From positions 2,001 to 66,000 of the forward strand of contig JAQUYN010000005.1 in the NCBI GenBank assembly GCA_028691835.1: a stretch of 64,000 nucleotides of DNA, in the 5' to 3' direction. The first letter of the stretch is position 1, and every line of letters starts with the position of its first letter. Source of the DNA: Alphaproteobacteria bacterium. GTDB taxonomy: Bacteria > Pseudomonadota > Alphaproteobacteria > UBA9219. A model generated the notes under the pieces. That model saw only the letters and a program-made list of their open reading frames with translations. It was not told where the DNA came from and ran no database searches. Below, one piece after another: positions 57,879 to 60,739 of this stretch. Made by a program: the position numbers and the translations under genes.

Positions 57879-59612
57879 ATGGTTGATGAATCTAATATGG
57901 TTGATGAATCTGTTGACGCCGCCTTCGAGCAAGATCTTCAAAAAAATTACAACTTTATCCTTGAGCACGCCAAGACCGACCCAGATCTTGCCCCCTTTAA
58001 TAGAATCAAAGATCTTAGAGCGATCACGTCTGGGTCACTGTACCAATTTCATAGCGATTTGTTGAAAGCCGTCGAGGCACGTACCTATGACGATAATACA
58101 GCAGACCTTGTGTACGAACAAGAAAAGATAGCATGTATCCATGCCATTGCCATTGAACACCAATACAGGGAAGAACGGAGCAACCCTCCTTTCGTTTTGG
58201 ATCCTGATTTTGAAGTCAGGCCAACCATCACTGAACGTGCAATGAGCGAACCTGCATTACAACCCAATTGGGATGATGTGGTCGCTAATGGATCGACTGG
58301 TAATATCTTTACGGCAGAAGAAACCATCACGCCAAACAGCACCACTGACCAGACCAGAACTCTGACAAACGAGGCTGAGGGCCAAACAGACGAGTGGATG
58401 CAAGAACTGTACGATTTTCTCCGCCAACAATCCACGGTTGACCCAGATCTCGAAGCTTTTGCTAGCGTGCAAGACTACAGCACGATAGACTCCCAATCCC
58501 TTAACCAATATGGCATAGCTTTGCTTAAGGAACTTAACAGTCGGCACTATGGGGGGGATGAAAATCGTGCAACCTATGATCATATCAAACTTAACGCCAT
58601 TCAGGAGATGGCCCGAGTGCATGAACGCCGCGAACAAAATAATATACCACCTTCTGCTGAGGCCAACGCCGCTTCTGTGTTAGAGGATGATCCGGAATAC
58701 AAGACCGTCCATTTCTTTGGCTACGATTCACACCATGCAACTATGCGCGTTCCTGTAAAAAAGGAATTGATAAATGAAATCAGTTCTACCGAGGGCGAAG
58801 AAACGCAAGACGGTACTGAGACCGGTATCGAAGGTTCAGAAAATACGATCATATCAAAATTTGCAAAGTTAACTAAATCGCTATTTCCTAAGGCAAAGAA
58901 AGTAGCACCCTACACGCTCCCCTTGGCTATTATTGCGGCCCCATTTGCCGCTCACCTGATGTGGCAAGCAGCTTGGCATATCCCCTTTCCAGAAAAACAA
59001 ACATTTGCTCAGGTGCGTCAACAATACAACGCTAAGCTTCAACCATTAGCTAACGAACTCCTTAAAGGAGAAGCAGACGAACTGGACTATACTGAAGCAA
59101 AGCATATCGTAGAGACGCGTGCTGGAATTCCCTATCTGGTATCAAAGAGTACAGCAAACTTCTCAGGAAATGGTCCTGTGTCACGTTTTATCTCCAGTGT
59201 CACAAAAAGTGCCGGGCCTACTATACTCAATGTGTATGAAGACCACGAGCAAAGCTGCAAAATTACAAGCCTTATCTCACCCAGTGAACAAGAAAAGTAT
59301 AAAGATTTTGGAAGCAAGTTTAAAGATATTGGCAAACAAGGCGGCATGTATTACTTCATGTGTCGGTTTACTGTCAAAGAAACTTCGCCTAGAACGTCCG
59401 AATCAGTAGCAACCCGTGACACAAAACAAAGCGTTGAATGGACAAACCACCCACACTATTTTGCAATGTCTTATGGAGCGATCCGTATCAATGATAAGGA
59501 TCATTCGGTAGATGTCTATGACAGCCATCAGGAACTCATCAAAACGACGCCTGGCAAACCACTAAGCACACAGAATAACGTGGCGAAAACAGCACGAACC
59601 CAAACCCCATAA
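57879..59612 (+). CDS. Orphan membrane protein (577 aa) with two N-terminal DPDL modules, one TM helix and a C-terminal extracytoplasmic domain
   Basis: AAGGA lies upstream. There is an internal ~88-aa duplication (residues ~16-104 and ~170-258) and a TM helix at ~345-366. The gene looks AT-richer by eye. Confidence 0.65.
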   Translation: MVDESNMVDESVDAAFEQDLQKNYNFILEHAKTDPDLAPFNRIKDLRAITSGSLYQFHSDLLKAVEARTYDDNTADLVYEQEKIACIHAIAIEHQYREERSNPPFVLDPDFEVRPTITERAMSEPALQPNWDDVVANGSTGNIFTAEETITPNSTTDQTRTLTNEAEGQTDEWMQELYDFLRQQSTVDPDLEAFASVQDYSTIDSQSLNQYGIALLKELNSRHYGGDENRATYDHIKLNAIQEMARVHERREQNNIPPSAEANAASVLEDDPEYKTVHFFGYDSHHATMRVPVKKELINEISSTEGEETQDGTETGIEGSENTIISKFAKLTKSLFPKAKKVAPYTLPLAIIAAPFAAHLMWQAAWHIPFPEKQTFAQVRQQYNAKLQPLANELLKGEADELDYTEAKHIVETRAGIPYLVSKSTANFSGNGPVSRFISSVTKSAGPTILNVYEDHEQSCKITSLISPSEQEKYKDFGSKFKDIGKQGGMYYFMCRFTVKETSPRTSESVATRDTKQSVEWTNHPHYFAMSYGAIRINDKDHSVDVYDSHQELIKTTPGKPLSTQNNVAKTARTQTP

Positions 59613-59662
59613 TAATGAGCAAATTAATATTTTTACAGTCCCCACAAGTATAGGAGTCGATC

Positions 59663-60739
59663 ATGAGTGTATTCGAATTTTTAATGGAAAAATTAACAAT
59701 CACGCCAAGCAAATCAAGGGAGGTTATGGCATCTTATGATTTCATTGAAAAATGCAAATTTGCAGACCCTGATCTTCAACTATTCAAAAATATTTCAGAC
59801 ATAACAAAACTGACTTACAAAGATATTGCTCAACCTTATGAAGCCATCAAAATGGTGGTCAATAAACGACAAAATATTCCAAACATATATCCAACGCAGG
59901 AAAACGCAGTTTACGACCAAAAAAAGCTTCAACATTTGGACCGTATTGTAAAATTCAGAAAAAAATATGAAGCTACAAAATTGCGGATCAAAATAGCTTT
60001 CCCAGCCTTAGCCGCAATTGGGCTAACAATCGCTGGCGTGGTCCATCATTTCAGTCAGCCTACGAAAGAGGAAATAAGCGCAGCCAAGAGCAATAGGGAG
60101 CGCATTACTAATCTCCGTTCTGATATCATCAATAACGAAGCCATGCGGGCAGATAACCTGCACGATCAAAGTACGGCGAGCCTCAGTGATTTCCTTCCCA
60201 CCATTACTGCAGAAAAACTTGACTCGTGTTCAAATCAATATGAGAAATCACCATACAAAAAAACCTTAATCAGGGTTTTGCATGTTTTGGATTATCCCAT
60301 ACAAGAATCGCCTTTTTGTGCCCAAGGTGGTGTTAATGCACAAGATAGTCTCGTCGGAATGAACACAGCTAAATCCACATACAAAGGTGTATATATCGCT
60401 GTACGAAAATCTATCTTTGAACGCCGATTTCGAGAAACATTCGGGAGTAGAGATCCTGCAGAGACTCAATATTATGATGTTATCGCCTCGACGGTCGGCC
60501 CAAATGCTGCATCTCTTCGAACGGCTCAAGATTTGACCAAAGTTGAGAAGGTTAAGACAAAAACTGAAGCACAGAGTAACGCTCGTAACTTTGATGAAGA
60601 GCGCGTTCAGCTTGTTATTAAACGTAACGGCAAAGATAAAATCGAGGTATTCGATTTAGATGGAAATCCATACAAGATTAAGCCAGTTAGAGGTCTTACC
60701 AGTGGCCTAAAGCCACAGGAGCCTAGTCCTTCTCATTAG
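59663..60739 (+). CDS. Orphan membrane protein (358 aa), paralogue of the preceding gene (one DPDL module + TM + C-domain)
   Basis: TAGGAG lies 7 nt upstream. SYDFIEKCKFADPDLQLFKNISD matches the DPDL modules of the upstream gene. The TM helix is IAFPALAAIGLTIAGVV. Confidence 0.65.
   Translation: MSVFEFLMEKLTITPSKSREVMASYDFIEKCKFADPDLQLFKNISDITKLTYKDIAQPYEAIKMVVNKRQNIPNIYPTQENAVYDQKKLQHLDRIVKFRKKYEATKLRIKIAFPALAAIGLTIAGVVHHFSQPTKEEISAAKSNRERITNLRSDIINNEAMRADNLHDQSTASLSDFLPTITAEKLDSCSNQYEKSPYKKTLIRVLHVLDYPIQESPFCAQGGVNAQDSLVGMNTAKSTYKGVYIAVRKSIFERRFRETFGSRDPAETQYYDVIASTVGPNAASLRTAQDLTKVEKVKTKTEAQSNARNFDEERVQLVIKRNGKDKIEVFDLDGNPYKIKPVRGLTSGLKPQEPSPSH

Follow-up and report, generated by a model that had tools for sequence, protein, structure and literature searches.

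The window examined in this study is a 64,000-nucleotide stretch of the genome of an uncultured member of the Alphaproteobacteria (contig JAQUYN010000005.1), and our subject is a pair of adjacent genes near its end, p1 (positions 57879–59612) and p2 (59663–60739), both on the forward strand, as are their own parts and signals and the two boundary genes of their locus. Each gene is an intact open reading frame (ORF) with exactly the limits assigned to it in a preliminary description of this DNA, and a protein identical to that of p1 was also found on contig L011 of an independent Logan assembly. The p1 product (577 residues) consists of a first module, an acidic linker, a second module, a linker of ~80 residues, a predicted transmembrane (TM) helix and a C-terminal domain of ~210 residues that is of its own type; the p2 product (358 residues) consists of a third module, a predicted TM helix, a long stalk helix and an alpha/beta head. 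Judging from the sequence searches described below, the two proteins belong to a previously undescribed family that is nearly confined to a narrow clade of uncultured Alphaproteobacteria.

The repeated unit, to which we refer as the DPDL module, had been described as a segment of ~85 residues present in three copies, two in p1 and one at the N-terminus of p2, and the repeats are indeed significant. Module 1 spans residues 16–108 of p1 (57924–58202) and module 2 residues 171–262 (58389–58664), as delimited by hidden Markov model (HMM) domains and BLASTP; module 3 spans residues 17–112 of p2 (59711–59998), with a last helix that continues into the TM helix. Modules 1 and 2 match each other in BLASTP with E = 2e-15 (33% identity over 85 residues), while the N-terminal part of p2 has matches to module 2 (E = 3e-6) and to module 1 (E = 4e-4). 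The Smith-Waterman z-scores of the three pairs are 22, 13.6 and 8.3, and none of 500 shuffles reached the observed score.

An exhaustive HMMER search of 1.84e9 cluster representatives with a profile of the three modules returned four proteins, namely p1, p2 and two relatives, P0003 (757 residues, four modules, E = 1e-18) and P0004 (495 residues, two modules, E = 7e-17), which are likewise built of modules, one TM helix and a C-terminal domain. All four are singleton clusters. The term orphan, applied to the two proteins at the outset, is therefore nearly right, as no curated family matches them, but two relatives do exist in this collection. With p1 and p2 as queries the best E-values in Pfam, NCBIfam, PHROGs and PADLOC were 0.016 to 0.075, far under the cut-offs; the best of these sub-threshold family matches were DUF6221 (14 bits, cut-off 27.6), Na+/H+ antiporter subunit G (12.9, cut-off 151) and KwaB (11.7 bits). 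P0003 and P0004 have no match in Pfam, and the sequences of the PDB contain nothing significant for the family. When p1, p2 and a four-row profile were used in word-seeded searches of 5.8e9 proteins, nothing besides the queries was returned; a scan of genome contigs with p1 and a scan of metagenomes with the profile of the C-terminal domain gave no match, and neither a scan of viral contigs nor tblastn against phage and plasmid records yielded a copy of the family. Neither the 64-kb window nor the 40-odd loci fetched for comparison contain an additional module or head domain in any reading frame. The module has no match among the known classes of helical repeats (TPR, Sel1, HEAT, ankyrin, spectrin) in Pfam, in profile searches of the PDB (best E = 0.36 to 1.2 with alignments of three and eight modules) or in Foldseek. 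A literature search on the three SRA run identifiers and on the isolate name of contig L001, CA_2019_NHSR, found no papers.

The relationships among the modules suggest how the present pair of genes may have arisen. Module 1 is matched most closely by the first of the two P0004 modules (score 148, z = 24), and these two form a cluster with module 2 (scores of 124 to 148); module 3 scores highest with module 2 (84) and then with the second module of P0004 (73). P0004 thus looks like a protein in which a module of the module 1/module 2 type is followed by one of the module 3 type, a TM helix and a head of the same type as that of p2. By the same comparison, p1 and p2 look like an expanded or split derivative of such a layout, in which p1 would have acquired a second module of the first type together with a long linker, a TM helix of its own and another kind of C-terminal domain. 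The local gene duplication proposed earlier is too simple an account, since P0004 unites both types of module in a single gene and p1 and p2 have unrelated C-terminal domains.

Each protein contains a single hydrophobic stretch with a K/R-rich N-terminal flank, in agreement with the one TM helix per protein already noted. The predicted helix of p1 covers residues ~342–366 (58902–58976), with KLTKSLFPKAKK before it and a Kyte-Doolittle maximum of 1.48, and was placed with the help of its flanking charges; that of p2 covers residues ~107–131 (59981–60055), with KFRKKYEATKLRIK before it and a maximum of 2.04. The N-terminal flank is K/R-rich in three of the four family proteins, and by the positive-inside rule, together with the conserved pair of cysteines in the head of p2 type, we infer that the N-terminus is cytoplasmic and the C-terminal domain periplasmic. 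This arrangement also fits the topology of cytoplasmic repeat, TM helix and exposed domain that had been suggested for the pair.

The C-terminal domain of p1 (58977–59609, ~211 residues with two cysteines) has no detectable relative in the searches made, which comprised PDB sequences and the searches with the whole protein. The predicted periplasmic part of p2 (60065–60652) was delimited from the alignment with P0003 and P0004 and from a structure model, and contains the stalk helix (residues 135–180), the alpha/beta head (residues 183–330) and a conserved C189...EKSPY...ESPxC219xQ signature. Profile matches among the domains of this type have E-values of 1e-77 to 1e-88: the domains of P0003 and P0004 align with that of p2 and have in common the motifs C..x5..EKSPY...ESPxCxQ(T/G)(T/G), GF.IKK and YY.V..(T/A)V.P, and P0004 also has a tail like that of p2, KVEFFSRDGTPYK...GLT. 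A similar beta-like motif had been reported at the ends of both p1 and p2, but this resemblance does not hold: the two C-terminal domains compare with z = -0.6, and the tail motif with z = 2.0, a value equalled by 48 of 1000 shuffles. We also considered the C-terminal domain of p1 as a diverged copy of the p2 type, and discarded the idea as its score against the p2-type profile is the same as that of shuffled sequences. Since the two domains are unrelated, one type of cytoplasmic module is joined in this family to two unrelated C-terminal domains.

An AlphaFold2 model of p2, calculated with a nine-row alignment of the family, has a predicted local distance difference test (pLDDT) score of 72.9, which rises to ~90 in the module (residues 20–110). 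In this model the helices of the module comprise residues 15–31, 36–41, 52–70 and 79–123; residues D35-P36-D37-L38 stand where the short second helix begins, so that the DPDL motif looks like a helix-capping box, and the last helix runs unbroken into the TM segment. Beyond the membrane a helix of 46 residues (135–180) is followed by the alpha/beta head (183–330). By residue numbering C189 lies within a helix (183–195) and C219 just before a strand (220–224), and a disulfide probably staples the head. The model of p1, obtained from its single sequence, has a pLDDT of 35 and is unusable. Foldseek searches with the whole p2 model, rather than with the isolated head, gave no credible match (best E = 2.3 in the PDB; best E = 0.03 with a TM-score of 0.12 in BFVD). 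Taken together with the sequence searches, these results bear out the earlier statement that no known family can be recognized.

The two genes occupy a site that is fixed in the genomes of relatives. Its conserved left boundary is a gene for an M16 peptidase (56089–57420, assigned by Pfam), and its right boundary is a tRNA-Ser(cga) gene (60993–61082, identified by ARAGORN and by Rfam, which reports the tRNA alone at the locus); the tRNA therefore lies close to the pair, as had been noted. The contig that encodes P0004 (L013, 12.5 kb) is collinear with the window and has its genes in the order MurD-like, MurL, DUF882/M15, M16, P0004 and tRNA-Ser(cga), and P0003 likewise lies between M16 and tRNA-Ser on its contig (L012). 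The M16 peptidases of L013, L012 and L001 are 93.5%, 88.7% and 83% identical to that of the window, and by the same protein the nearest GTDB contigs come from metagenome-assembled genomes at 83%, 72%, 68% and 63% identity. The flanking DNA aligns at 68–79% up to position 57415 and again from 60961 onward, with no similarity between. Where M16 identity falls to 72% (L002) and 68% (L003), tRNA-Ser directly follows M16 and there is no family gene; in relatives more distant than these a tmRNA gene follows M16. Across genomes the site thus contains two genes, one gene with two modules, one gene with four modules, an unrelated ORF, or nothing, and it is a hypervariable locus of the replacement type.

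The signals around the coding sequences are conserved. A promoter region (57799–57835) read directly from the sequence comprises a TGAAAGTTTTAA box, a −35-like TTAATT (57807–57812), a 17-nucleotide (nt) spacer and an extended −10 element TGTTATACT (57827–57835); it does not appear in the list of a consensus scan. Approximately 120 nt upstream of p1 align with the corresponding regions of L013 and L012, which precede a family gene, and of L001, which precede an unrelated ORF, and the aligned stretch holds the TGAAAGTTTTAA box, the extended −10 element (TGTTATAaT) and the ribosome-binding site. The Shine-Dalgarno sequence of p1 (AAGGA, 57866–57870, read from the sequence) lies 8 nt before the ATG and has a purine-rich counterpart at the equivalent place in L013, L012 and L001; that of p2 (AGGAG) lies 7 nt upstream of the start at 59663, so that both genes have the good ribosome-binding sites ascribed to them. 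A terminator scan places a likely terminator, a GC-rich hairpin followed by a T-rich tail, at 60813–60831, and the stretch 60813–60840 is 96% identical to that after P0003 in L012. From the gap of 50 nt between the genes, the single promoter and the single terminator, p1 and p2 are probably co-transcribed. The fixed site and the conserved promoter and terminator indicate that the family has been inherited vertically.

Two observations concern the DNA around the start of p1. A perfect tandem duplication with a period of 18 nt (16 nt identical) extends across the start codon (57878–57911) and produces the sequence MVDESN/MVDESV with two in-frame ATGs, of which the first alone has a Shine-Dalgarno sequence. 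Between the stop codon of M16 and the ancestral intergenic sequence there is an insertion of ~335 nt (57418–57752) specific to the source genome, which holds an ORF of 42 residues (57487–57615) with a strong Shine-Dalgarno sequence, which was picked up by gene calling in the Logan assembly; the insertion has no match among the sequences searched, no inverted ends and no family match.

The ORF behind the same promoter in L001 (2553–3533) encodes an acidic, proline-rich protein of at least 327 residues and runs off the contig. Its N-terminus was considered as a degenerate module, and BLASTP, HMM and hhalign comparisons gave no relation to the family. The contig is labelled Bdellovibrionales, but its M16 and DUF882 proteins are 83% and 78% identical to those of the alphaproteobacterial window, and it is probably mis-binned.

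The family changes much faster than its neighbors. With the Nei-Gojobori method, applied to the window and L013, the nonsynonymous divergence (dN) is 0.04 for M16 (synonymous divergence, dS, ~1.5) and 0.10 for DUF882 (dS saturated), versus 0.6–1.0 for the alignable segments of the family (dS saturated), which corresponds to amino-acid change 10 to 25 times faster than in the neighboring genes. DUF882 is 85% identical between the window and a relative, while the family proteins are just 23–37% identical over the parts that can be aligned. The view that these are fast-evolving genes is thus well founded, also in the light of the number of genes (one or two) and modules (one to four) per genome. 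The low GC content, which had been pointed out for both genes, is likewise real: p1 has a value of 0.45 and p2 one of 0.40, whereas 31 long ORFs of the window average 0.486 (sd = 0.028). It is, moreover, a trait of the family, as P0004 has a GC content of 0.43 and its M16 neighbor 0.56, with corresponding values of 0.46 and 0.53 for P0003.

The pair had also been linked to an integration hotspot at the tRNA, and this link is not borne out. The island that occupies the tRNA lies on its 3′ side (61246–63438, with the far boundary beyond the end of the window) and comprises a P4-type integrase (61246–62469; domains Arm-DNA-bind_3, Phage_int_M and Phage_integrase), an AT-rich ORF of 219 residues that belongs to no family (62466–63125) and an AlpA-type regulator (63226–63438). 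Since p1 and p2 are 5′ of the tRNA, they are outside this island; they do not lie between the 3′ end of the tRNA and a distal repeat of that end, where the genes of a tRNA-borne island are placed, and there are no att-like direct repeats around them. Their position, promoter and terminator are, furthermore, conserved between genomes in which synonymous sites are saturated. Near the tRNA we observed a direct repeat of 51 nt (60873–60923 and 60969–61019, 86% identical), which consists of the region just upstream of tRNA-Ser and its first 27 nt. This pseudo-5′-tRNA fragment stands 96 nt upstream of the real tRNA and does not flank p1 and p2; L002 has a similar duplicate of its own. The repeat in the window may be a scar of events at the 5′ side of the tRNA.

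The closest parallel for the locus is offered by the replacement-type flexible genomic islands, in which related genomes carry different or highly divergent envelope-related genes at the same place (PMC4033161). As in these islands, the site of p1 and p2 is fixed between conserved core genes (M16 and tRNA-Ser), its content is drastically different among relatives and its predicted products are envelope proteins. It differs in consisting of one gene or gene pair of 1.5–3.5 kb rather than a multi-gene glycosylation cluster; in addition, the genomes compared here are lineages at the level of species (dS is saturated), with one genome per lineage, and not strains. Homology between the alleles persists in three genomes, and divergence in situ, rather than replacement by recombination, may explain most of the variation.

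As for the proteins, the overall layout of p1 and p2 recalls that of the RseA/RskA anti-sigma factors and of RodZ, all of which combine a small helical domain in the cytoplasm with a basic segment next to the membrane, one TM helix and a domain in the periplasm; p2 is also comparable in length with RodZ. There is, however, no similarity in sequence or structure, and the cytoplasmic domain of the present family is repeated up to four times, which those families are not known to do. No anti-sigma domain of the RseA, RskA or zf-HC2 type was matched in p1 or p2 by Pfam or NCBIfam, and no gene for an extracytoplasmic function (ECF) sigma factor is adjacent, as M16 is upstream and tRNA-Ser downstream in the window, L013 and L012. 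The features of RodZ (an Xre-type helix-turn-helix and DUF4115) have no match in Pfam either, and Foldseek found no helix-turn-helix protein. In p2 the order of TM helix, long helix and periplasmic domain of alpha/beta type is also reminiscent of VirB8/TcpC and of PilN/PilO/GspL/GspM. TcpC (3ub1) and a chain of the type IVa pilus machine (3jc8_Oa) do appear in the Foldseek list, with E-values of 2.8–5.3 and probabilities of 0.01–0.02 that amount to noise; no genes for secretion or pilus machines were recognized in L013 or in those ORFs of the window that were scanned, and p1 and p2 have no such match in Pfam. Spectrin-like repeat proteins such as EzrA resemble the family in having helical bundles of ~90–100 residues in tandem, a membrane anchor and a variable number of repeats, but there is no detectable homology, the repeats of p1 and p2 are N-terminal to the anchor (the opposite orientation), and an extracytoplasmic domain is present in addition.

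These results can be brought together as follows. We are confident that p1 and p2 represent a real, vertically inherited and fast-evolving new family with the N-terminus inside and the C-terminal domain outside the cytoplasmic membrane: the long ORFs are intact in three genomes, and the DPDL and C..EKSPY..ESPxCxQ motifs are conserved. In mechanistic terms, they would be bitopic proteins of the inner membrane, with one to four helical modules of ~90 residues in the cytoplasm and, after the single membrane helix, a periplasmic domain that in the p2 type takes the form of a long helical stalk with an alpha/beta head. The head would bind a ligand of the envelope or of external origin, and the modules one or more cytoplasmic partners, with their number setting valency or reach. 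Modular receptors usually show such a pairing of a single type of module with unrelated heads. From this architecture, and from the two unrelated C-terminal domains of the family, the proteins may be a transmembrane tether or a sensor, a role that we prefer to the others considered but propose tentatively and would not call probable. The family would diverge by gain and loss of modules, by splitting or duplication of genes and by replacement of the head domain. For description and mechanism taken jointly, we consider the chances to be evenly balanced. If the explanation is true, this is a clean and small case of a site in the core genome at which one family of envelope proteins diversifies rapidly between neighbors that are 89–94% identical, and it adds a protein family without relatives in sequence or structure, and possibly two new folds. 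Loci of this kind are usually shaped by pressure from phages or neighboring cells, and few have been described beyond the cultured model groups. At present the finding has limited practical value, since the organisms are uncultured and only four sequences are available.

Several points weigh against this interpretation. Its functional part draws on sequence and predicted structure, the topology on hydropathy and charge, and the family is defined by just four sequences; the flanks of the TM helix of P0003 are ambiguous, and the alignment used for the structure model is shallow, with three rows across the head. No conserved partner gene, such as one for a sigma factor, a kinase or a secretion component, accompanies the family. 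L001, the closest GTDB genome, has an unrecognizable ORF at the position of the family. Finally, because dS is saturated, dN/dS cannot be estimated, and relaxed constraint is inseparable from diversifying selection. By a more ambitious proposal, the proteins would be envelope-spanning receptors of a new kind in an arms race with phages, neighboring cells or a host: periplasmic heads would be swapped for unrelated domains (the p1 type and the p2 type), four-helix modules in the cytoplasm would be duplicated or lost under diversifying selection, the modules that p1 and p2 have in common would join the two co-transcribed proteins into a heteromer, and module and heads would be new folds. As a whole we consider this proposal unlikely.

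Relaxed constraint would be the explanation if these were functionless or decaying ORFs whose rapid change is neutral drift. With dN near 1 and dS saturated, dN/dS could be high; the composition is AT-rich, the four proteins are singletons and more distant relatives lack the gene. Drift is nonetheless difficult to reconcile with ORFs of 358–757 residues that are intact in three diverged genomes, with conserved motifs and a conserved pair of cysteines, and with the conservation of promoter, Shine-Dalgarno site and terminator; the pLDDT of 73 for p2 with its shallow alignment, versus 35 for p1 alone, is consistent with a foldable, conserved structure. We regard decay as most improbable. An origin as mobile-element cargo at the tRNA-Ser, for example as a membrane protein for superinfection exclusion or defence carried by a phage or island, would account for the proximity of the tRNA with its P4-type integrase and AlpA island, for a GC content below that of the flanks and for the duplicated 5′ fragment of the tRNA (60873–60923). 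Yet the genes are on the other side of the tRNA from the integrase and keep the same position, promoter and terminator in three genomes with saturated synonymous sites; there are no flanking direct repeats, PHROGs and PADLOC give no significant match, and viral contigs, phage and plasmid records contain no copy, all of which makes this origin very unlikely.

The preliminary description had favored a family of surface proteins or effectors in a host-associated bacterium, with a variable C-terminal domain exposed to the host or delivered into it. Rapid divergence, variation in the number of copies and modules, and low GC speak for such a family, and the relative with an M16 identity of 68% appears, from its sample naming scheme, to come from a termite gut. 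The N-termini (acidic MVDESN... and MSVFEF...), however, lack the features of signal peptides, and in a diderm a single helix with its N-terminus inside anchors the protein in the inner membrane and leaves the C-terminal domain in the periplasm, not at the cell surface. There is no similarity to known effector or adhesin domains, a Pfam scan of ~25 ORFs of the window recognized no secretion-system genes, and the window carries ordinary, intact genes of biosynthesis and housekeeping (DAHP synthase, MetA, NadE, GlmS, RelA/SpoT, AlaRS, MetRS, HflX), so that neither the surface location nor the association with a host is supported; we judge this reading improbable. A scaffold or landmark protein of the cell envelope, similar in logic to RodZ, FimV/HubP or EzrA, would link cytoplasmic partners to peptidoglycan and be tied to the neighboring genes for L,D-transpeptidase, DUF882/M15, MurD-like and MurL proteins. 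It is compatible with the bitopic layout, in which a TM helix connects a helical domain in the cytoplasm to a periplasmic domain, with the acidic low-complexity linkers of p1 and the acidic, proline-rich ORF at the same position in L001, and with the conserved synteny with peptidoglycan genes. On the other hand, Pfam finds neither peptidoglycan-binding domains (LysM, SPOR, PG_binding) nor those of RodZ, landmark proteins usually have a broader taxonomic spread, and the synteny with wall genes is also found in L002, which has no family gene, so that the linkage may be incidental. On balance we do not think a scaffold likely, and retain the preferred explanation of a fast-evolving bitopic family at a hypervariable locus.

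Elsewhere in the window there are three more long ORFs without a Pfam match at E<=1e-5, at 16306–17613 (434 residues), 28114–29238 (374 residues) and 33273–34289 (338 residues), all unrelated to the DPDL family. Upstream of M16 lies the cluster of cell-wall genes (50292–55930), which is conserved in relatives: it comprises a YcbB-type L,D-transpeptidase (50292–51956), a MurD-like ligase (52440–53768, reverse strand) and its partner (53761–55098, reverse strand), which has no match itself in the Pfam copy searched but whose counterpart in L013 is annotated as MurL_N/MurL_epimerase_C, and the DUF882/M15 peptidase (55373–55930).

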